Shown here piece by piece: positions 13,734 to 57,128 of a stretch of 64,000 nt of DNA. Made by a program: the position numbers and the translations under genes. Location: positions 800,001 through 864,000 of the forward strand of contig CAWJSJ010000001.1 in the NCBI GenBank assembly GCA_963845565.1, written 5' to 3'. The notes below the pieces were generated by a model, which was given only the letters and a program-made list of their open reading frames with translations, was not told where the DNA came from and searched no databases. Every line of letters starts with the position of its first letter. Position 1 is the first letter of the stretch. This DNA comes from an uncultured Methylomirabilota bacterium. GTDB taxonomy: Bacteria; Methylomirabilota; Methylomirabilia; Methylomirabilales; 2-02-FULL-66-22.

Positions 13734-14592
13734 GCGCCAGCACTCCTTGTCCCTGCAAACCCTCCTCTGGAACCGTCAAGGCCGCCGCCGTCAGCCGTTG
13801 ACGTTGGAGTTGGCCACGCATGTGGAGGAGCGCCGCGCTGTGAATCTGCGAGACGCGAGACTCCGAGACCTCGAGCACGGCCGCAATCTCTTTCATCGTC
13901 AGCTCCTCGTAGTAGTACAGGCTGAGCACCGTCCGCTCGCTGTGAGGAAGCTGGTCGATGATGGTCCCAAGGATGGCACGCCGCTCGCTGAGCGCCAGCG
14001 CCCGCCAGGGATCCGGGGTGCGGCGCTCCGCGAGTGCCGGCGGGTCTCCGCTTTCCTCCTCCTCGTCGCCGCCACCCGGTCGCCCCGCATCCAATGAGAG
14101 CTGCAACCCGCCCCGCAGTTCGTACAGCACGCGAAAATACACGTCCAGGTCCATCCCCAGGTATTCGGCCACCTCGTGGTCGTGTGGGGCACGGAGGAGG
14201 CGTTGCTCCAACACCACGGTGGCGCGGTCGATCCGCCGTGCCTTCTCGCGGAGAGAGCGGGGCAAGGTGTCCAGGCTCCGGAGTTCGTCGAGGATGGCAC
14301 CGCGGATCCGGACCTGGGCGTAGACGGCGAACTCCACCTCCATGTCCGGGTCGTAGGCCTCAATAGCGGCCAGCAGACCTGGAATACCCGCCGACTCCAG
14401 ATCATCCAATTCCACGTGCGGAGGCAGCCTGAGGGCGAGCCGGCCCGCCACCTTGCGCACGAGCCCGATCGTCTCCTGGATGAGGGTGTCGCGTATGTCG
14501 GGATCCCGGTTCACCCGGAAGCGGCGCCAGAGCGGGCGCAAATCCTCTCGTATGCCCCCTCCCGGTTTTGTGCGAGGCGTCCCTCGGGCCAT
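13720..14592 (-). CDS. fliA: Flagellar sigma factor sigma28 (FliA/WhiG)
   Basis: LPPHVELDDL, RIRGAILDELRSLD, LSLYYYEELTMKEIAAVLEVSESRVSQIH. Confidence 0.97.
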   Translation of the reverse strand: MARGTPRTKPGGGIREDLRPLWRRFRVNRDPDIRDTLIQETIGLVRKVAGRLALRLPPHVELDDLESAGIPGLLAAIEAYDPDMEVEFAVYAQVRIRGAILDELRSLDTLPRSLREKARRIDRATVVLEQRLLRAPHDHEVAEYLGMDLDVYFRVLYELRGGLQLSLDAGRPGGGDEEEESGDPPALAERRTPDPWRALALSERRAILGTIIDQLPHSERTVLSLYYYEELTMKEIAAVLEVSESRVSQIHSAALLHMRGQLQRQRLTAAALTVPEEGLQGQGVLAHALP

Positions 14593-45930: not shown

Positions 45931-46248
45931 TTATCCGGTCCGATCCAGCACGACCCCGAGCATCGACTCCATAGCGGCCCGCAGCCGCTGCACTTCTTCC
46001 GCCGGAATCTGCCGGATCACCTGGTGCGTTTCTCGGTTGACGATCTTGATGACCAGCTCCCGGCTCTCCTGATTCACCTCGAACACCAGCCCGACATCCC
46101 CCGCGGGGTCGCGCACCACCGGCTCTGGCGGTCGAGGCCGGGCTGCCGGCTCGCTACGCACGATCCGGGGATCGGGTGGACGAAGCCCCATACCCGACCC
46201 GGGGTTCGCCGCAGCCACCGTTCCGACGGCTTCGATCTCGGTGACCAT
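45931..46248 (-). CDS. flaG: Flagellar protein FlaG
   Basis: LVFEVNQESRELVIKIVNRETHQVIRQIPAEE...GVVLD. Confidence 0.92.
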   Translation of the reverse strand: MVTEIEAVGTVAAANPGSGMGLRPPDPRIVRSEPAARPRPPEPVVRDPAGDVGLVFEVNQESRELVIKIVNRETHQVIRQIPAEEVQRLRAAMESMLGVVLDRTG

Positions 46249-46275
46249 GATACCCTCCGAATCGGGGACCCACCT

Positions 46276-46614
46276 TCAGCGCAAATGATCGAGGTATGCC
46301 GCCGGGGTCGCGGCTCTCGTGGCGTAACACAGGAGGGCGCGACCGCCTGTGTCGAGATGCGACAGCGCCGCCTCCACGCGTTGCATCTCTGCCCGGATCG
46401 CACCGATGGCGTGATTGATCGTCGCCATCACCGGGTCCAGGTCACCGGGACGCACCACGCGACCCTGCAATACGTCGAGGAGGCGTTGCCGGGTCCCCAA
46501 GAGCAACCGGACCTCCTCGAGATTCCCCGTCGCGATCGCGTCGAGTTGCGCGGCACTCACCCGCTCAAGTTCCGCGATCTCTTCTGCGCTGATGAGCGTG
46601 CTCGGCACCGACAT
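46276..46614 (-). CDS. FliT-like flagellar chaperone
   Basis: Helical QLDAIATGNLEEVRLLLGTRQRLL; follows fliD. Confidence 0.6.
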   Translation of the reverse strand: MSVPSTLISAEEIAELERVSAAQLDAIATGNLEEVRLLLGTRQRLLDVLQGRVVRPGDLDPVMATINHAIGAIRAEMQRVEAALSHLDTGGRALLCYATRAATPAAYLDHLR

Positions 46615-46624
46615 GCGGATTCCC

Positions 46625-48070
46625 TCATGCCACCGTAATGGAATCGAGCAGTGACTGCTGGGATTGCAATTGGAGTAACATCTCCTGCAAGGTGGTGTAT
46701 TGGTCCAGCAGCGTGGCTTGCTTGATCTTCAGATACGCTTCTTGCTGCTCGATTGCGCGATTCACGCTGTCGAGCCGCGACGCGGTAGCTGCCAGCGCGT
46801 TGTCCAGCGTCCCGCCGGCCGTGACGAATCCGTTGAGTCGTGTGCTGAGACGATTGGCGACGCCGTCCGGGGAGTTGAAGAGCGCGGTCACCCCGTCCGG
46901 ATTGTCCGTCAGCGCCTTGGTGAACTTGGTCGTATCGCTGATGCTCAGCGTCCCGTCCTTGCCCGCGGTGATCCCGATCTCGGACAGCGCCACCGGCCCA
47001 CCTGGCACCCCGGTGGCGATCCGGCCTCCGACATCCGCGCGGAGATTCATCATCAACGACAGATAGGTGGACTCCGACGCGAGGGTGCCGCGGGTGACCG
47101 CCTTGACCTCCGTCGCTCCCGCGGCCGTCGTGTCCGTGGACACGCTGACGCCGGTCCGCTCCTTGAGGAACTTGATCGTCGTGTTGTACGCGTCGAGGAA
47201 CGCCTGCACCTTGCCCTGGATCGCCTTGTCGTCCGGGCCCACCGTCAGCGCCACGGGGACCGCATCCGCGGTCTGCGTCGCCGTGAGACGGAAGGTGACG
47301 CCGGTCAACACGTCGTCCACGGTGTTGGCCCCGCGCGTGATGGTCAGACCGTCGAAGACGAACCGGGCATCCAGTTGGTCACTGGCATAGAGAAAACCGC
47401 CCGTGGTGCCGCTCGATTGCACCCCGCTGTTTGCGCCCGTCGCCGCAACCAACGTTCCGCTCTGGTCGGCGAGGGCGATCGCGTTGGCGGACCCGCTTTC
47501 TGCGCTTGCCAGCACCAAGCGCGCGGTCGACGGCGAGTCGTTGACGACGGAGGCGGTGACCTTTGCCTCGGACCCATTGATGGCCGCCGCCATCGCACTC
47601 AGCACCGTCCGGTTGTCGTCGGCGGCGCCGATGGCGACCGTCACGTCCGTGTCGACACCGTTCACGGAAATGCGGAACGTGTGCGAGCCCGCACCCACCG
47701 CCCCGACCAGTTCCGTCCCCGCGTGCGACCATTGCGTGGAGACCACGGTGCTCTGTCGGGCGAGCTGTGTCACCAACAGCGTGTGCGTCCCGCTCGTCGC
47801 CCCCGACGAGGCCGTCGCCGTGGCCACGTTCCCGTTACTCGAAATGACCGTCTTCGCCCCGAAGGGAGACAGCGTCCCGGGTCGCACCAACCCTTGGACC
47901 TGGGTGTTCAGCGCGCTGAGATTGCTGCGCAAGTCGGTCAGCGTCGCGGAGCGTTTGTTGAGCGCCTGTTGGTCCGATCGGTATACCTTCGACGCTCCGC
48001 TCTGCCGCTCCAGGTCGATGAGCTGCGCCACGTAGCCACTGAGATCTGAGGTCCCGCTGATCGTCGCCAT
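46625..48070 (-). CDS. fliD: Filament cap protein FliD
   Basis: VAQLIDLER, VTQLA, NTVDDVLTGVTF, FLDAYN, LSEIGI. Confidence 0.93.
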   Translation of the reverse strand: MATISGTSDLSGYVAQLIDLERQSGASKVYRSDQQALNKRSATLTDLRSNLSALNTQVQGLVRPGTLSPFGAKTVISSNGNVATATASSGATSGTHTLLVTQLARQSTVVSTQWSHAGTELVGAVGAGSHTFRISVNGVDTDVTVAIGAADDNRTVLSAMAAAINGSEAKVTASVVNDSPSTARLVLASAESGSANAIALADQSGTLVAATGANSGVQSSGTTGGFLYASDQLDARFVFDGLTITRGANTVDDVLTGVTFRLTATQTADAVPVALTVGPDDKAIQGKVQAFLDAYNTTIKFLKERTGVSVSTDTTAAGATEVKAVTRGTLASESTYLSLMMNLRADVGGRIATGVPGGPVALSEIGITAGKDGTLSISDTTKFTKALTDNPDGVTALFNSPDGVANRLSTRLNGFVTAGGTLDNALAATASRLDSVNRAIEQQEAYLKIKQATLLDQYTTLQEMLLQLQSQQSLLDSITVA

Positions 48071-48110
48071 GCGCCCTCACTGCATCGAGACGGGTCCGGC
48101 GCCCCGGTCG

Positions 48111-48464
48111 TTAGGCGGTCCGACCCGCGACGGCGTCTTCCCACGCCTTCTTCAGTTGCCGCAAGATGTGGGCCGCATCGGTGAAGTGCTGCCGCCGGAT
48201 CTCCCACAAGCAGTACTCGTACAAGCGAAAGAGATCCGTGGCGATTTCACCCGCATCGAAGTTCAGCGCGCCGATCAATTCCGTGACGGCCCGGCTGGCA
48301 CGCTGCGGATCGCGCGCTTCGCACTGTACGATGGCCTGCTCGTACACCATGACGAGCAGTTGCATCGGGCTGGCACTGAGGATCTGCTGGTCGCGGTACT
48401 GACTATACATACCCGGTCGCGGAACCGGTCGGACAGGGGCGTCAAGTAGTGACTGAGGCAGCAT
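48111..48464 (-). CDS. fliS: Flagellin chaperone FliS
   Basis: ILSASPMQLLVMVYEQAI, ELIGALN, LFRLYEY, LKKAW. Confidence 0.93.
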   Translation of the reverse strand: MLPQSLLDAPVRPVPRPGMYSQYRDQQILSASPMQLLVMVYEQAIVQCEARDPQRASRAVTELIGALNFDAGEIATDLFRLYEYCLWEIRRQHFTDAAHILRQLKKAWEDAVAGRTA

Positions 48465-48491
48465 AGTGTCCTCTCTTGAACGAGGGGAAGT

Positions 48492-48525
48492 CCTCAGGGT
48501 GGGCCGTTACCGGCCCACCCTGAGG
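48492..48525 (-). terminator. Perfect 15-bp hairpin between fliC and fliS
   Basis: CCTCAGGGTGGGCCG-TTAC-CGGCCCACCCTGAGG; weak U-tract. Confidence 0.7.
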
Positions 48526-48533
48526 CGTGTGCA

Positions 48534-49373
48534 CTACCGGAAGAGCGACAGCACGCTCTGCGGCGCCGTGTTTGCCTGGGCCAACTGGGCAGTCGCCAGT
48601 TGCCGCAGGATCTGGTACCGGGTAGATTCCACCTGCTCCTTGGCCACATCGGCATCCAGGATACGGCTCTTGGCAGCCGTAGTGTTGACGATGGCCACGC
48701 TCAGGTTGTTCTCCACCAAGCGCATGCGTTGGACCACCGACCCGATCGACTGCACCTGGGTCGCGACCGTGTTGATGGCCGTGTTCACGCTCGCCATCGA
48801 GTTACAGGCCGCCGACGAATCCGTCACGCTGACACTGGTCAGCGAGAGCGCGGTCGCGTCGTAGCTGGCGCTGATGCTGAAGCTGATGTAGTCGGTCTCG
48901 GTGTCGCCCGTCTGGAACCGCCGGTTGGTGAAGGTTCCGTCGAGCATCTTGGTTCCGTTGAACGTGGTCTGCGCCGCAATCCGGGTGATTTCATCCCGAA
49001 GCGCGGTGAGCTGCGTGTTGATGGCGGTGCGCTCCGTGCTGCCCAGCGTGTCGCTGGCGCCCTGCACCACCAGGTCCTTCATGTCGAGCAGGATCTGGTT
49101 GATGTTGTTCAGGCCACCTTCGGCGATGGACAACGCGTTGCTGGCCGTGCCCACCGAATCCAGAGCCACCGAGAGGCCGCGGGCCCGCTTGTCGAACGAC
49201 GTCGCGATGGAGTATCCGGACGGATCGTCCGCCGCCTCGTTGATGCGTCGGCCGGTGGAGAGGCGAAGCTGGCTGATCTCCAGCTTCTTGTTGATGCTCA
49301 TCAGGGAATTGAGGCCGTTCAGGGCACCGATGTTGGCATTGACTCGATTCGCGTCACCGACTGCCATGGTCAT
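48534..49373 (-). CDS. fliC: Flagellin, 279 aa (minimal D0/D1 type)
   Basis: RLSTGRRINEAADDPSG, IAEGGL, TTFNG, SRILDADVA, LAQAN.APQSVLSL. Confidence 0.97.
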   Translation of the reverse strand: MTMAVGDANRVNANIGALNGLNSLMSINKKLEISQLRLSTGRRINEAADDPSGYSIATSFDKRARGLSVALDSVGTASNALSIAEGGLNNINQILLDMKDLVVQGASDTLGSTERTAINTQLTALRDEITRIAAQTTFNGTKMLDGTFTNRRFQTGDTETDYISFSISASYDATALSLTSVSVTDSSAACNSMASVNTAINTVATQVQSIGSVVQRMRLVENNLSVAIVNTTAAKSRILDADVAKEQVESTRYQILRQLATAQLAQANTAPQSVLSLFR

Positions 49374-49557
49374 CTACCTCCGTGTGAGGGAGCCGCGATC
49401 CGTCGCTGGCTCCCAAGCGGCCGGACGTCCGTGTCCGACCTTCGCCCGCCTTCTCCCGGAAGACACCTTCCGTGTGTGGCGGACAGGGATGGGTTGACTC
49501 TGACGAGAAACGCGTTCACCTCCTTCGCTGGCTGATTCTCGTCCATGAGCGCCATTA
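49374..49557 (-). promoter_or_regulatory. fliC 5' leader with six CsrA/RsmA-type ANGGA sites
   Basis: ANGGA at 49542-46, 49521-25, 49469-73, 49428-32, 49399-403 and 49379-83 (the last is the SD); four lie in hairpin loops. Confidence 0.75.
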
Positions 49558-49563
49558 CCATGT

Positions 49564-49590
49564 CTATCGGTCCCGCGGCGAGAAACATGA
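49564..49590 (-). promoter_or_regulatory. sigma28 promoter of fliC
   Basis: TCATGTTT-N11-ACCGATAG versus consensus TAAAGTTT-N11-GCCGATAA. Confidence 0.8.
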
Positions 49591-49700
49591 GGTCGAAATC
49601 ACCCCGGATCTTCCGGTGCCGAATTCGCCGGCGGTACCAACCGGTACCCCACGGCAACCGACGGTAGAGAAGTGCCGCAATTGCGGAATCCGCACGGCGT

Positions 49701-50720
49701 CTATTCGTTCGCGGTCGAGCCGCGTCGCAACCGGACGGCCCCCACATCAAGGATCCCGCGGCAGTGCGCAAGAACGGCGTCCAGCTTGCTGGCGTCCTCG
49801 ATGCGCTCACCTGCCGACGCACGGATTCGGGTGAAGAGCGGATAGGCCTGTTCCACCTGTCCCTGGAACAAGAGCGCCAAGGCGAGCACGTGGAGGGAGA
49901 GCAGGTTATCCGGATCCGCCGCGAGGCTTGCCTCGGCGTGTCGGACGGCGCCCACAAGCTCATTCTCCGCCAGCGCGAGCTGGGCGAGTTTCATGTGCGC
50001 AAGGTCTGCCGTCTCGTGTCCCAGCACCTGCTCCCCGGCGGCAAGGGCTCGACGAAGCGCGGTACGGGCCTCCGGAACTCTCTGCAAACTCTTGTACGTT
50101 GCGCCGATGTGGTAATAGACGTAGGGATCGTCCGATCCCGCCGCGATCATCTGCTCCAACAGCGCCAGATTTCTTGTTGCACGCTCAACCCCGCCCTGGG
50201 CGTTGCGGCCGACATACCCGTGATGGATGACGGTCAGATCCACATCGGCAACCGTCCCGCCGGCCCGCAGCACCGCGGGGGTGACCTGCTCGTGGATCGC
50301 GCCCTCGTACCGGTACTCCGGACGATTCCGGAACAGGCGGGTGATGCGCGCGTCATAGAACCCGCACAGGGCGCCCCGCGGTTGAAGGTTTCGGACCCGC
50401 ACACGCCCCGCGTCCCACCCTGCGTCCTCCACTACCGCCCGCAACCGGTGCGTGTCTGCGCCGTCCAGCTCCTCATCCGCGTCCAGGATCAACACCCAGT
50501 CGCCCATGACGTGCGCCAGGGCGGCATTTCGCGCGCGGGCGAAGTCGTGATTCCATGCGCCCTGGACCACGCGAGCGCCGTGCGCGGCGGCGATGCGCAC
50601 CGTAGCGTCACGCGAACCGGTGTCGAACACCACCATTTCGTCGACGCCTTGCGCCACGCTGGCAAGACTCCGAGGCAAATCCCGCGCTTCATCGCACACG
50701 ATCATGCACAGCGAGATCAT
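49701..50720 (-). CDS. GT2 glycosyltransferase with TPRs (flagellin-glycosylation type)
   Basis: ISLCMIVCDE, DTGSRD, DFARARN, LDADE, YEGAIHEQ, HHGY; TPR helices. Confidence 0.9.
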   Translation of the reverse strand: MISLCMIVCDEARDLPRSLASVAQGVDEMVVFDTGSRDATVRIAAAHGARVVQGAWNHDFARARNAALAHVMGDWVLILDADEELDGADTHRLRAVVEDAGWDAGRVRVRNLQPRGALCGFYDARITRLFRNRPEYRYEGAIHEQVTPAVLRAGGTVADVDLTVIHHGYVGRNAQGGVERATRNLALLEQMIAAGSDDPYVYYHIGATYKSLQRVPEARTALRRALAAGEQVLGHETADLAHMKLAQLALAENELVGAVRHAEASLAADPDNLLSLHVLALALLFQGQVEQAYPLFTRIRASAGERIEDASKLDAVLAHCRGILDVGAVRLRRGSTANE

Positions 50721-50744
50721 GCACCCCCTCGCACCGCCCGGCGC

Positions 50745-53700
50745 TCATCGCCGCGACGGCATGGTTCGCCGCACCGGCTGCAGCCGAAGCGCCTGGAGAC
50801 GTCGGTTCGCCTTGGCAGCCGCGGCATCCCACGTGAAATGGGACCGGATCCGGATGCTGCCCCGATGGCCGCGCGCGCGCGCCTCCTCGCGATGACTCGC
50901 GACCTGCCGCATCAGACTCGCCAAAGCGTCCACATCGGCTTCGCCGTAGTACGGAGCAGCCGCCAGTGCCGTCTGGCCGATCCGCCACTCGGTTTCGCGG
51001 CGCTCTACCGCCGGAATCAGATAGGCCGTCTCGTGATCGCAGAAATCCAGCGCCGCGCCGTAATTCGTCACCAGGACCGGCAGCGCGCAGGCCATCGCCT
51101 CCGCGATCGGCAGGCCGAACCCCTCTCCCCGGTAGGCGTGCACGAGGCAATCGCAAGCCGTGTAAAGAGCCGGCAGCTGCGCCGGCGGTAGATCGTCGGT
51201 CAGATAGAGAATGCGCGGGGCGCCCGCCGTTCCTTGAATCCGGCGGATCATCTCCCCGAAGGTCTGCCCCCTGTAAAACGTCTGCGTGCCCATGTCCTTG
51301 ATGACCAGACACACATCCTGCGCCGCGGTGAACGCTTGGAGATAGGCCCGAAGAAGCAGGTCGATGCCCTTACGGACGATCGTCCCGCCGACGAAGAGGA
51401 ACTTATACGTGGACGACCCCACGTTCGGATGGGACGCTCCGCCGAGGTCGGAAAGAGCGAGAGGTTGCACGTGTGGATGAAACCGTTCGCAATCCACGCC
51501 GTTGGGAACGACGGCGACCCGGTCGGCGGGAACGCCGCTTCGCAGATAACACTCTCGCACGAAGGTCGAGGGTACCCATATCTCATCGACCATCGTGGAC
51601 ATGGGCTCGACCCACGTCTGCGGTATCCCCCCGTACTCCCACGGCTGGATCATTACCCATCGACCATCCGCCGGCGGTTCGAAGTTCGGGGGCCATTGGT
51701 GACGGAGGTGAATCTCGGCGGGACGCGAGAGCCTCGCTCCGACCCGGTCCGCGAGCGACGCGAGGCGCGCATCCGTGTGAGGATCGAACTCATCAGGCTC
51801 GAAGGGAAGAATGGATACTTCGTGCCCAGCCGCGATGAGCCGAAGGCACAATTCGCGATTGACGAGCGCCAAAGAGTGATGAACAAATTGCGACCCCTCC
51901 CAGGTGATCGCAAGCGGCCCGCTGTCCTTCCCGGTTCCGTTCTCGCGGCCCGCGTGTCGTGCCACCGATACCACTGGGGTGACGACCCGTGCAGCAATCT
52001 CTTCGAGCCGTTCCGCAACCCGTCCCGCCACATGGTGCCGGGTGAAATCTCCCAAGATGCGTCCCCGAGCTTCCAGACCCTTTGCCTGGCCGAGTTCCGG
52101 GTCCGTGACCACTTGACGCATGAGCCCACGCAGGTGCGAGATCGAGGGTTGCGCCCAACGGTGACCCCGGAAGTACGGCACCTCCCGACATGCCGACTCC
52201 TCCACCGGAACGACCGCACAGTCGATCAGAAACGCGGTGTCGTCGTCCATGAATTCCAAGTGGCCGCTCCAGCGGGTGGCGATCACCGGCAACGCCATCA
52301 GCATGGCTTCCATGAACGGGCGCCCCCACCCCTCGCCTCGCGTCGGCGATACGTAGGCGTTCGCCGCCCGGTATAACCCCGGCAATTGCCCGGCGGGCAG
52401 GTTCGACTCTAGAAACAGGACGTTCGGCGGGAGGCTGTCGGCCAGGCCCGATGCCCGAAGGACCGCCGTTGCCTGCTCCCGGAGTCGCGCCAGCGGCCAC
52501 CCTGAGGAGGACCAGACTTTGAGGATGAGGGCTACGTCCTCGTCCCTTGAAAACTCTTCCACGAAGGCACGGAGCAGCACGTCCCACCCTTTACGAAGGG
52601 TCCAGTCGAAGACCGAGAGGAAGTTGAACCCCCGCCCGCCTTCGAGCGCGATCGGCGGGACGTCCAGGCGAAACGGTCGCGGGTCGATCCCGCCCGGAAT
52701 CTTGACGAGTTTCTCCCTGACCACGCCGGCCGTCGCGAACGTGTCGATGTTGAAATCGCTCGGGACCCAGACCTCGTCCATCCGGTTGCAGGCGGCTACC
52801 CAGTCGGGGGGGATCCTGTCGGTCTCGAACATGGTGCGCCCGACATGGTAGCTGGCTTCGGGCATCCGCTGGAAGTTCGGGGGAAAGATGTGCGAGACGC
52901 CGACCACAGGCCCCCGAGTGCGGTCGAGGGATACCTCGGTAAGACCCTGCAACGCCGCAGTGTCCTTCGGCGGAAGTTCGGCCGTCGCCGTGTTCCAGGT
53001 AATGGGGACGACACAGACGGGCACGCCGAGCGTGTGGAGCCCCAGAACGAACTGTCGCGCCTCGTCCGCATAGCCGCTCGGATCGAAGATCGGGGCGTTC
53101 CATACCACCTGCGGCTGGGCGCGGTCTGGTCGCCGACCTGCCGGCGGCTGATCGGGGGGCGCGGTCACGCCAACAGCGCCGATGGTGGTTCGCCCCTCCT
53201 CGGCCTGCGCGGGCCGGAGCGCCGCCGACTCCACGAGCCGACCCCCAGCCGCACGCGTCGCCGCATGACGGAGGAAGGCTTCGGCGCTGGGCGGCCGCAA
53301 CTCGCCCCCTTGCCATCCTTCTCGAAGCCTCTGTTCGGCGTACTTCAGCCGGGCCACCATCTCGTACACGCCAGAACACAGCGAGAGGATGAACCCGTAC
53401 GCGTCGTCCTTCCTTCCCTCCGTCTCGTCGTAATACCAGCGGAACATCCGGCCGAACGACTCGGCGGTGTCCTGCCAGGTACACGGGGCTTGCCGCTCCC
53501 CCAACTTGACCGCCTCACCCGCCGTGTATCGGTTCAGCTTCTCGAAGTACGACGCGAGGTCCGGGTAGGTGTCGTGCACGATCGCATACGCCGGATCGTC
53601 CGCGGGAAACTTGACGATGGCCCCGTCGACGACCGGCCCTTGGTGGACGTATGGCTTCCAGTTGAAGCGACCGCGGCGCAGGAGCATGGGAGCCTTGTAG

Positions 53701-55340
53701 CCAGGATACCAGCCGCCAGCGTGACGGATCCACCGCCCGAGGAAGTGATTCCGGTACGGAAGTTGGACGCCCGCGACCTCCGCCGGAGCCCGTCGGAGGA
53801 AGGCGTCAATCCGGCTCGCCAGTTCGGGCGTCATGCGCTCATCGGCGTCGAGGTAGAGAATCCACTCGTTGGTCGCGCGCTGCGCGCTCACGTTACGCGC
53901 ACCATCGAAGTCACGAATAAGGGGGTGGGTTAGAATGATGGCACCGTACCGCCGAGCGATCTCGACGGTGCGGTCGGAACTCTCCATGTCCATGACGATC
54001 AGTTCGCCGGCCCAGCCGGCGACGCTCTCCAGACACGCCGCGATATTGCGCTCCTCGTTCCGCGTGTGCACGATCACGCTCACCGGAACCCGCAATCTCT
54101 CTCGACCAATCGCCGTGGCGACCTGCTCGACCTTCGCCCGGTCCACCGAACGCGCCCCGGTCGGTGCGACGGCGGTAAGCGACGCCGCCACGGTCGTGGT
54201 CGGGATCGCACTCAGGAGCGTCACCACTCTTTGTGCGTCGTCAAGATCGGCGTTCAGTTCCAGCGCACGAACCAAACTTGCCCGCGCGTCGTTGTCGCGC
54301 CCGACCGTCGCCTCGGCCATACCTTTCAATCGCCACGCCACCCACGGTTCCAGAAAGACTGGCTGGTCTGGAGGTTGCGCCCCTTCCGCCAGTGCTACCG
54401 CCTTTCCGTACGCGACAATCGCATCGTCCCACTGACCGAGTCGGGCCAGGGTCTGGCCTCGGAGCGCGTAACCGGATGCAAGTGTCGGCCATAGGGTGAC
54501 GGCACGATCAAGCGCCGCCAGGGCTTCTAAGAACGCCCCACGTTCGAATAGCGCCGCCCCGAGCTGCTGATACGCAGTTCCGAGTTCGGCGGCCACTCCC
54601 GTCTTTCCGGCACGGGGTCCACCCCCCTCCAACCGACCCAACCCACGCCGGTAGCAGGCAATGCTGGCATCGAGCTCCCCTAGCGACGCGTGGCACTCGG
54701 CCCGCTGAATCCACGCCAAGCCGTCCGCAGGATCCCGTTCCAATATCCCGGCCAGAATCCGCAGGTTCCGCGTCGCCTTGGACCGGACGACCTCCGGCCC
54801 GCCAAGAAACCCATGATGGTCAACGACAACGTCGGAATGCGCCACCGCAGCCTCGAACGGAATGGAGGGAAGGATGCACTCGTGGACGGCACCCATGTAC
54901 CGGACATGCGGATCCCGCCGGAACAACCGCGGAAGCCACGCGACTCGGGTCATTCCCGATTGCGCCGACGCCGGGGTTGGTGTTCGCTGCTGTACGAGGA
55001 AGGCCGACACGTCCGCCCGCTCACGCATCAGGCGTCGCACCAGAGACCGGCACTCCGGCCGGAGCCGCTCGTCCGCGTCCAACACCAGCGTCCAATCGCC
55101 ACGCGCGTGCACCAGGGACACATTCCGGGCCGCGGCGAAGTCGTCGGTCCAGGCGTGGCGAATCACCCGAGCACCGAGTCGCTCCGCAACCGCGATCGTC
55201 CCATCTGTGGAGCCGGTGTCCACCACGACGATTTCGTCTACAACCTCCCGCACGCTTTCCAGACAATCCGAAAGCCGGGTGGCTTCGTCCCGGACGATCA
55301 TGCACAGTGACAGCGTGTTGGGTTCAATCGGAGAGCGCAT
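50745..55340 (-). CDS. Multidomain glycosyltransferase GT2-TPR-GT2-GT4-GT4, 1531 aa
   Basis: Two LDADE GT-A domains; TPR block; two GT-B domains (GEGWGRPFMEAM; GEGFGLPIAEAM). Confidence 0.9.
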   Translation of the reverse strand: MRSPIEPNTLSLCMIVRDEATRLSDCLESVREVVDEIVVVDTGSTDGTIAVAERLGARVIRHAWTDDFAAARNVSLVHARGDWTLVLDADERLRPECRSLVRRLMRERADVSAFLVQQRTPTPASAQSGMTRVAWLPRLFRRDPHVRYMGAVHECILPSIPFEAAVAHSDVVVDHHGFLGGPEVVRSKATRNLRILAGILERDPADGLAWIQRAECHASLGELDASIACYRRGLGRLEGGGPRAGKTGVAAELGTAYQQLGAALFERGAFLEALAALDRAVTLWPTLASGYALRGQTLARLGQWDDAIVAYGKAVALAEGAQPPDQPVFLEPWVAWRLKGMAEATVGRDNDARASLVRALELNADLDDAQRVVTLLSAIPTTTVAASLTAVAPTGARSVDRAKVEQVATAIGRERLRVPVSVIVHTRNEERNIAACLESVAGWAGELIVMDMESSDRTVEIARRYGAIILTHPLIRDFDGARNVSAQRATNEWILYLDADERMTPELASRIDAFLRRAPAEVAGVQLPYRNHFLGRWIRHAGGWYPGYKAPMLLRRGRFNWKPYVHQGPVVDGAIVKFPADDPAYAIVHDTYPDLASYFEKLNRYTAGEAVKLGERQAPCTWQDTAESFGRMFRWYYDETEGRKDDAYGFILSLCSGVYEMVARLKYAEQRLREGWQGGELRPPSAEAFLRHAATRAAGGRLVESAALRPAQAEEGRTTIGAVGVTAPPDQPPAGRRPDRAQPQVVWNAPIFDPSGYADEARQFVLGLHTLGVPVCVVPITWNTATAELPPKDTAALQGLTEVSLDRTRGPVVGVSHIFPPNFQRMPEASYHVGRTMFETDRIPPDWVAACNRMDEVWVPSDFNIDTFATAGVVREKLVKIPGGIDPRPFRLDVPPIALEGGRGFNFLSVFDWTLRKGWDVLLRAFVEEFSRDEDVALILKVWSSSGWPLARLREQATAVLRASGLADSLPPNVLFLESNLPAGQLPGLYRAANAYVSPTRGEGWGRPFMEAMLMALPVIATRWSGHLEFMDDDTAFLIDCAVVPVEESACREVPYFRGHRWAQPSISHLRGLMRQVVTDPELGQAKGLEARGRILGDFTRHHVAGRVAERLEEIAARVVTPVVSVARHAGRENGTGKDSGPLAITWEGSQFVHHSLALVNRELCLRLIAAGHEVSILPFEPDEFDPHTDARLASLADRVGARLSRPAEIHLRHQWPPNFEPPADGRWVMIQPWEYGGIPQTWVEPMSTMVDEIWVPSTFVRECYLRSGVPADRVAVVPNGVDCERFHPHVQPLALSDLGGASHPNVGSSTYKFLFVGGTIVRKGIDLLLRAYLQAFTAAQDVCLVIKDMGTQTFYRGQTFGEMIRRIQGTAGAPRILYLTDDLPPAQLPALYTACDCLVHAYRGEGFGLPIAEAMACALPVLVTNYGAALDFCDHETAYLIPAVERRETEWRIGQTALAAAPYYGEADVDALASLMRQVASHREEARARGHRGSIRIRSHFTWDAAAAKANRRLQALRLQPVRRTMPSRR

Positions 55341-55357
55341 CGGCGCGTCGTCCTCTT

Positions 55358-57128
55358 CTAGGCTACCGCCAGGCTGGCCCGCAGCACTGGTATCGCCCTT
55401 GCCGCCAGCGCGTGATTCGGCGCCAGCGTCAGCAGGTCTTGAAAGTAGGCCAGCGCTTTGGACGCGTCCCCTGCGGAGAGGGCGAGGGCTGCGAGGCTCT
55501 CGTAGATTTCGCAGGTCGTGGGCGCACGGCGTAACGCCTCCAGCAGGCTCGCTTCCGCCCCGACGGATTCCCCGCGCGCCATGCGCGTCTTGCCTTCCAG
55601 ATAGAAGATACGCGCATCGTCACCCCCTAGCGCGATGGCCTCCCGACAATGGACGAGCACTTCGTCGTGCGCGCCTCGGGATTCGGCGAGGCACGCCAGC
55701 GCGAGGTGCGCATCGGCACTTGGATCCACCCCGAGCAGGTGATTGAACGCGTCGTGCGCCTCGGCGTGCCGACCGACATGGAGGAGCCCCTCCGCGCGGA
55801 GAGCCAACCCTCGCGGGTCCACGGGTTCTGCCTCCAGGAACGGCTCCAGCGCTTCCAGCGCCTTCGCCCAATGCTGTTGGGCCGCATGAGATTCGGCCAG
55901 CGCAAGGTGCCCGCGGGGGAGCTCCTTGAAGAGGGTCTTCGCCTTCTCGAACGCCTCGACCGCTTCCCCATGCGCACCGCGAAGGCTGTGGATGCGCCCC
56001 ATCCCCAAATAGCCTTCCGGAGCGTCCGGCTGACGCCTGATGGCCTCACGGAACGCTGCCTCGGCGTCCTCGCGCAACCCGAGAGTGAGGAGACAATCCC
56101 CCTTCAGGGCCAATGCGAAGCCCAGGTCGGCCTCGTGTTCCAGCACACGCGCGCCCACCAGCTTGGTCTGTTCCCCCAACCGGACGTAGATATCCAATTC
56201 CTCGATGGCCTCGGCATGCCGACCGAGCCGCCCCAGCGCCATGGCCGCCAGGAGGTGCGGCGGGGAATAGCCGCCATCCGTCTCGGCAGCCCGGCGGCAG
56301 GCCTCGACTGCCCCTCCATAATCCTTCAACCGCAACAGGCCATTGGCCAGACCGCGGTAGGCGACCGCAGCGTTCTGTCTCGGCATCTTCGGGTTCGCAA
56401 GTGCGTTCCGGTATGCCTCAACCGCTTCGAGAATCTTGCCACCCAAGCCGAGCGCTTCCCCGTAGTGGAACATCGTCATGGGATCGTCAGGATGTTCGGC
56501 TAACTCTCGCTCCAACAGCGTCAGATTTCTCGCCTGCTTGTCCCGTTGATCCGAGAAATCCTGATGGTAGCCAAGGTGGTCGATGACGAGATCGGTCGCC
56601 GCAATCGTTCCTCCGATCCGCGCGATGGAGGGTGAGATCTGTTCGTGGACGCGCCCTTCGTACCGAATCTCCGGTCGGTTGCGAAACACCCGCGGCCACG
56701 CGTTGATGACAGCCGCCTGGCTGCGGGTGCCTTTTAGCGGACTGCGAATGTTCAGGAGATACGCTTGATACCGGTCGTCCGCCAGGAGGCTGCGAAGTTT
56801 CCGGCGCGCCTCTCGGGCCAGCGTCTCATCCGCGTCCAGCGCCAGGATCCACGAACCGCGGGCGTGTCGCACCGCCTCGTTTCGCGCCGCGGCGAAGTCG
56901 TCGCACCACGCGAAATGGAGGATCCGCGCCCCGTACTTCTCCGCCTACCGCCACGGTGTCGTCGGTGGAGCCGGTATCCACAATCACGATCTCGTCCACA
57001 ACGCCGCGGACGCTGTCCAGGCAGCGGGGCAGGTTCTTCGCCTCGTTTTTGACGATCATACAGAGCGAGAGGAGGATTCGATCTCCTCCGACGCGCACAT
57101 GCGTGCGTGACGACTTACGCTTTGCCAC
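55358..57128 (-). pseudogene. GT2-TPR glycosyltransferase split by a 1-nt insertion at 56944-56945 (pseudogene or sequence error)
   Basis: Span is 1771 nt = 590 codons + 1; removing one G from GTA-G-GCG gives DTGSTDDTVAVAEKYGARILHFAWCDDFAAARN. Confidence 0.85.

Follow-up and report, generated by a model that had tools for sequence, protein, structure and literature searches.

The closest described relatives of the locus analysed here are flagellin mRNAs under the control of the translational regulator CsrA. The hag mRNA of Bacillus subtilis carries one GGA in a hairpin and another overlapping the Shine-Dalgarno sequence (SD), and the cognate CsrA has a long C-terminus and the residue N55 and is encoded adjoining fliW and flgL (PMC6529632, PMC7652899, PMC13443453). 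N55 is required for FliW binding in that species (PMC6529632). For flaA of Campylobacter jejuni, Dugar et al. 2016 (PMC4894983) likewise describe a sigma28-dependent flagellin mRNA with GGA hexaloops and a FliW-type CsrA, with no Csr sRNA; this mRNA is both a target and a titrator of CsrA and bears two sites, probably for one dimer. A single CsrA dimer can bridge sites 10-63 nt apart, and CsrA protects the flhDC mRNA of E. coli through two 5' sites (PMC7652899). A different kind of 5' protection is described for the STAB-SD elements of B. thuringiensis cry3Aa and Listeria inlA: the host has RNase J, and a strong SD-like sequence is placed close to the 5' end of the mRNA and well away from its start codon (PMC12970973, PMC5449094). 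On the hbs mRNA, RNase J1 is blocked by ribosomes sitting on a strong SD (PMC5737220).

The window, by which we mean the whole 64,000-nt stretch of DNA that was analysed (positions 800,001 to 864,000 of contig CAWJSJ010000001.1 from an uncultured Methylomirabilota bacterium), contains the sole flagellin gene of its genome, fliC (Table 1); one flagellin and flgL are the flagellin-type genes found genome-wide. Upstream of fliC stand two boxes that closely resemble the sigma28 consensus. The sigma28 promoter proposed in the earlier note is supported by these boxes, by a fliA gene in the genome and by the pattern T[CT]A[AT]G-N14/15-NCCGATA, common to all 11 close full-length leaders with conserved boxes and a spacer of variable length. 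The leader measures ~190 nt, not the ~185 nt first suggested, if translation starts at the second ATG (49367), a choice that agrees with the SD spacing in relatives. The promoter-like boxes, the leader and fliC adjoin one another and are all conserved, and the leader is likely the ~190-nt 5' part of a sigma28-driven flagellin mRNA.

RNA contigs with 0-1 differences span fliC into the leader and end at 49541, 49537 and 49535 in three samples of one study, at 49527 and 49499 in a second study and at 49517 in a third, and one short contig from a fourth study extends to 49455; contigs of this kind cannot show transcript ends or strand. None extends beyond the promoter. Since one run that is possibly a DNA control (X18) has no cover at 49361-49665, the absence of RNA upstream of 49541, taken alone, carries no weight as evidence. 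The contigs that run from fliC into the leader do speak against transcription starting close to the ATG. The leader shows no terminator-like site, and none was found on the minus strand from the end of fliC to the gene that follows it. The gene order 3' of fliC is a 117-aa ORF, fliD, a 112-aa ORF and flaG; the 117-aa product, which has no NCBIfam match, is presumably FliS-like, judging by position. Directly upstream of fliC are three glycosyltransferase genes with TPR repeats, likely a flagellin glycosylation cluster.

Table 1. Features of the fliC leader and neighbouring genes (positions in the window)
Feature	Position	Strand	Remarks
fliA	13804-14484		
117-aa ORF, fliD, 112-aa ORF, flaG	45931-48464	minus	3' of fliC
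fliC	48534-49367	minus	277 aa from likely start; 279 aa from 49373; matches NCBIfam flagellin models
fliC Shine-Dalgarno ACGGAGG (site 6)	49377-49383	minus	invariant in 10 aligned leaders
Hairpin 5, ACGGAU loop (site 5, 49403-49399)	49388-49414	minus	20 nt before SD site; probability unpaired 1.0
Hairpin 4, C-ACGGAC-G hexaloop (site 4, 49432-49428)	49419-49440	minus	65 nt before start; probability unpaired 1.0
Variable GC-rich middle stem	49439-49488	minus	contains site 3 (49473-49469), paired
UUCUCGUC, 3' strand of alternative stem	49502-49509	minus	pairs with GACGAGAA (49543-49536), hiding site 1; minimum-energy fold and ensemble
Site 2, AAGGAGGUGA, extended start-less SD and ANGGA	49516-49525	minus	21 nt after site 1
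Hairpin 1, UGGC/GCCA outer and CUC/GAG inner stem, AUGGAC hexaloop (site 1, 49546-49542)	49529-49554	minus	consensus fold; marginally stable
ANGGA motifs, sites 1 to 6	49546, 49525, 49473, 49432, 49403, 49383	minus	
Sigma28-type promoter TCAT(G)-N15-ACCGATAG	49564-49590	minus	from sequence; start site inferred near 49557
Glycosyltransferase genes (three)	49701-56872	minus	directly upstream of fliC

The genes for CsrA and FliW were correctly reported to lie outside the window. A search of the genome found both 2.4-3 kb past its end, in a cluster of flgL, fliW and csrA (C1:866442-868022, 2.4-4 kb past the window end). The CsrA of this genome has 105 aa, with R44 and N55 present. Among 251 genomes of the phylum, a denominator that includes two genomes marked unpublished (G028 and G057) on which nothing beyond the phylum-wide tallies depends, flagellin was found in 24, fliW in 17 and csrA in 16, with no csrA match in the other 235. 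The csrA-bearing genomes include 14 with flagellin and 15 with fliW. Flagellin is patchy across the phylum, occurring within this genus in 5 of 21 genomes, and among the outgroup flagellins of the collection the nearest come from Bacteroidota/Ignavibacteria and Calditrichia. One genome has three csrA matches within 3 kb beside fliW (G039:C17:73830-76937), which could be genuine or reflect an assembly repeat. A further flagellin genome (G025, loci L009/L230), 95% complete, has no csrA or fliW match, and its leader contains a GGGCA...UGCCC stem whose loop has no ANGGA and which may be an operator in decay.

All six ANGGA motifs claimed for the leader are located on the minus strand, and their density is above chance, at least six being found in 14 of the 56,466 non-overlapping 190-nt windows of the genome. 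Ranked by the number of ANGGAN hexaloop hairpins (loops closed by three Watson-Crick pairs) plus the ANGGA count, the leader takes first place in the genome, and only one other segment of the genome reaches three hexaloops. The leader fold is stabler than those of shuffled sequences (z = -2.82). The earlier note had placed four of the motifs in hairpin loops. Two of these loops are upheld, since sites 4 and 5 carry the only unpaired GGA in the full-leader ensemble (probability about 1.0). The other two fare worse: site 3 is paired (probability unpaired 0.00), its GGAAG pairing with CUUCC and the proposed ACAC/GUGU stem not being formed, and site 1 is mostly paired within a competing stem of GACGAGAA with UUCUCGUC, the cost of forcing hairpin 1 in this leader being 5.0 kcal/mol. 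Four of the ten aligned leaders contain the competing stem, and one more has it in shortened form. The genome (G000) has its two richest ANGGA clusters at C3:128979-129335 (minus strand, 8 motifs), a purine-rich short repeat without hairpins, and at C5:604266-604665 (plus strand, 9 motifs), ~0.9 kb after a sigma-factor match.

Conservation was assessed in a close set of 11 distinct full-length leaders, collected by genome and metagenome searches, whose flagellins are at least 68% identical; duplicates (L027, L109, L028, L111) and partial leaders (L104, L105, L107, L112, L113) were left out. Ten of these leaders align. The eleventh, L116 (flagellin 76% identical), has one ANGGA only and has lost sites 1, 4 and 5. 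Within the aligned ten, sites 1, 2 and 6 are retained in every leader, site 4 in nine and site 5 in six (hairpin 5 itself being retained), and site 3 occupies the same position in just two. Site 3, paired in this leader, is also not conserved among relatives. The total per leader ranges from 4 to 6, so six is not the conserved number. Judged from the alignment, the conserved design is a pair of modules flanking a variable GC-rich stem, and the 44 nt directly after the inferred transcription start align without gaps in all ten leaders. One relative, G008, has the leader and no csrA, fliW or flgL was found in it, an absence that is not interpretable in a genome 87% complete. The same genome has extra flagellin copies (L014, L021, L024, L025) that are 62-66% identical, one with an in-frame TAG, and the leaders of these copies are without CsrA-type hairpins.

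The 3' module consists of the site-4 hexaloop, the optional site 5 and the SD. Site 4 has 15 positional homologues, hexaloops of the form C-ANGGAN-G lying 59-68 nt ahead of the start; the GGA is kept in 14 of them and the closing C-G in all 15. Site 4 is the strongest hexaloop ahead of an ORF in this genome and a likely high-affinity CsrA site. Site 6 is 20 nt away from site 5 and 49 nt away from site 4, distances that one CsrA dimer can bridge. The locus combines csrA and fliW, a CsrA of the FliW-binding type (R44, N55, 105 aa), an upstream GGA hexaloop and a GGA in the SD (sites 4, 5 and 6), which are the features of the hag/flaA-type operators. An ANGGAN hexaloop with at least four pairs within 130 nt of the flagellin start precedes flagellin in 14 of the 14 flagellin genomes that possess csrA versus 3 of the 10 with csrA not found, kin among them not being independent; the latter ten genomes are 81-97% complete. 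The same hairpin type stands ahead of 52 of 126 more distant flagellins. In five loci of family f7 (L010, L011, L221, L228, L229) the 3' CsrA module is kept and no sigma28-like promoter lies within 300 nt.

By sequence and by analogy, the 3' module is likely an ordinary hag/flaA-type CsrA operator. The proposal that CsrA represses fliC is well supported by the csrA-fliW-flgL cluster, by R44 and N55 and by a hexaloop that tracks csrA across the phylum, from which we infer the repression itself. Compared with hag, the leader is longer, has an extra 5' module and belongs to a different phylum; compared with the two sites described for flaA, it has 4-6 sites, two modules and a start-less SD.

The 5' module begins with hairpin 1, whose support consists of the consensus fold, with 98.6% of cells paired, and one compensatory pair (U-A to C-G in four of ten sequences, probably one event). 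Hairpin 4 has no compensatory change and only one-sided ones. Hairpin 1 is the minimum fold in none of the ten full leaders, lying 1.8-7.9 kcal/mol above the minimum; in the 32-nt prefix its probability is at least 0.57 in six of ten. A covariance model of the 5' module gave one true match in its own genome (75.6 bits, the next match scoring 19.3), and no free-standing copy of the module was found there. In 150 other genomes of the phylum the model gave just 17-26 bit matches, taken as background, and G004, G006 and G008 were absent from these matches, so that this search had no outside positive control. A DNA palindrome, CTCAT-GG-ATGAG, was considered and rejected, being broken in four leaders with ATGGAC that keep the RNA hairpin.

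The second element of the 5' module is site 2, the AAGGAG noted earlier as lacking a clear stem. No conserved intramolecular partner was indeed found for it, its best partners differing among leaders, and we re-read it as a start-less SD, because AAGGAGGUGA is a 10-nt complement of the 16S tail of this genome. Its pairing with the anti-SD is worth -18.1 kcal/mol, versus -13.1 for the real SD, and none of 30 shuffles is as strong. In each of the ten aligned leaders site 2 is the best anti-SD match (-17.0 to -18.1 kcal/mol, equalled by 0-1 of 30 shuffles each), the real SD being weaker (-10.9 to -13.8 kcal/mol). Site 2 is invariant at +33 in 10 of the 11 close leaders, and L116, G093 and G233 have a match of the same strength at +24 to +28, GRGGGGGUGA-like and without GGA. 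Across the 13 leaders with a match, the sole changes are A/G exchanges at three positions opposite U of the anti-SD, never opposite C or A, although such transitions are the commonest mutations, which leaves the wobble pattern no more than suggestive. The pattern RRGGRGGTGA is expected 0.002 times per 170 nt of this genome.

No ATG, GTG or TTG conserved among the leaders follows site 2, and none is present in this one; G093 has a GTG after the match that would give two codons, and G006 and G233 have a CTG. A strong start-less match was not found in 12 other leaders of the phylum with a recognisable promoter, nor in the 27 outgroup leaders with a promoter match among 73 loci. Counted from the inferred 5' end, site 2 is reached after ~33 nt, and folds of the full leader leave it just 35-73% unpaired. 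RNase J (over cut-off), RNase E/G and RNase Y are all encoded. The leader presents three traits of a STAB-SD, namely a strong anti-SD complement far from the start codon, no start at usable spacing and a host with RNase J, and by this analogy site 2 probably works as a STAB-SD-like 5' protector. Its ANGGA suggests that it may also be bound by CsrA. Unlike the cry3Aa and inlA elements, this putative protector is part of a flagellin leader, with an ANGGA overlapping it and a GGA hairpin ahead of it.

On balance, we lean towards a two-module flagellin leader in which a 3' CsrA block of translation is combined with a 5' start-less SD that docks the 30S subunit and protects the mRNA. By extension from B. 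subtilis and C. jejuni, cytoplasmic build-up of flagellin would take up FliW and free CsrA. Freed CsrA would bridge site 4 or 5 with site 6 and occlude the ribosome, and flagellin export would reverse the block. At the 5' end, site 2 would pair with the 16S tail without initiating, slowing 5' decay. In the weakest step of this scheme, sites 1 and 2 might form a second CsrA-dimer site, the 5' end being held by the ribosome or by CsrA according to the state of the checkpoint. Titration of CsrA, if any, would be a side effect limited to flagellar mRNAs. A bolder form of the scheme, which we regard as unlikely, makes the 5' module a switchable cap: the start-less SD would park a 30S subunit that blocks RNase J, free CsrA at sites 1 and 2 would displace the ribosome while silencing the real start, and the checkpoint would set both lifetime and translation of the mRNA.

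The 5' module can also be explained through CsrA alone, all conserved GGA being plain CsrA sites with one dimer on sites 1 and 2, another on site 4 or 5 and site 6, and the SD likeness of site 2 incidental. Such an arrangement could sharpen repression or keep RNase E off the 5' end, as on the flhDC mRNA of E. coli, whose leader (PMC7652899) is also long and flagellar and has two candidate CsrA sites near its 5' end, although flhDC is activated by CsrA and the mRNA here also bears a likely repressive module. Site 1 is a candidate hexaloop of invariant form C-AUGGAN-G, and its distance to site 2 is 21 nt in every one of the ten leaders, the spacing given for the two flaA sites in PMC4894983. We nevertheless consider this explanation somewhat doubtful, as it accounts neither for the invariant GGUGA after the GGA nor for the purine-only N, and three leaders keep the anti-SD match yet lose the GGA. 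It is highly improbable that the module descends from the leader of an upstream gene since lost and was retained for extra CsrA docking: a hairpin followed by an SD right after the promoter does mirror the short flagellin leaders of outgroup loci, but both parts are unlike the flagellin type (CUC/GAG versus GGGC/GYCC; AGGAGGUGA versus ACGGAGGUA), neither a start codon nor a coding remnant comes after them, and the module is more conserved than the remaining leader. A leader peptide starting at the AUG of site 1 (MDENQPAKEV...) is scarcely credible and was rejected. That AUG is invariant at +12 and opens a frame of 63 codons here, ending over the first fliC ATG, but no SD precedes it, the frame stops at 23-68 codons among the leaders, in all three frames relative to fliC, and 7 of 15 codons have amino-acid changes, only 2 varying synonymously alone.

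The earlier note had gone further and likened the leader, or a processed 5' fragment of it, to a CsrB/RsmY sponge coupling filament assembly to global CsrA output, which the comparison renders very unlikely. The likeness is real in that CsrB/CsrC and RsmX/Y/Z (PMC7652899) also have several ANGGA, some in hairpin loops, that the leader is the densest GGA-hairpin segment of its genome, that the genome scan for hexaloops and ANGGA revealed no other Csr-like RNA, and that the C. jejuni flaA mRNA titrates CsrA (PMC4894983). Against it, the 4-6 sites vary among relatives and are far fewer than the 22 GGA of CsrB; just two of the six here are predicted open loops, one is paired, one is the SD and one the start-less SD. 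Nor is the leader a free RNA: it is without a terminator, RNA contigs bridge it and fliC (contigs that would still allow a processed fragment), its 5' module has no free-standing copy, and no credible Rfam match was found in 48000-50500. Sponge RNAs of this kind are transcribed under BarA/UvrY (GacS/GacA), and the promoter here is of sigma28 type. As for global output, csrA is limited to a largely flagellated minority of the phylum, and ANGGA hexaloops occur in the genome at the rate of seven control pentamers; candidate leaders with such a loop number 22 versus 16-23 for the controls, fliC being the top candidate target, in a crude scan that misses single-stranded sites. Given the genomes unmatched for csrA and the lack of a hexaloop excess, a global role of CsrA is unlikely. 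What survives of titration in trans is a modest effect, plausible among flagellar mRNAs, and the dual role of target and titrator is already described for C. jejuni.

Returning to the two-module reading, our literature search found nothing joining CsrA binding with ribosome-based 5' protection on one mRNA, and no flagellin mRNA with an SD-like stability element. Papers on STAB-SD with CsrA, judged by title or abstract start, included none about flagellin, and no title dealt with this element or with this phylum. The core of the leader is a known form of control, the flagellin-FliW-CsrA checkpoint, here extended to an uncultured lineage of Methylomirabilota, a phylum in which the hairpin corresponds cleanly with the presence of csrA; the 5' module is a modest new addition. 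If the reading is true, a single mRNA would bring together two known mechanisms, CsrA binding and 5' protection by ribosomes, through a start-less super-SD that overlaps a CsrA site.
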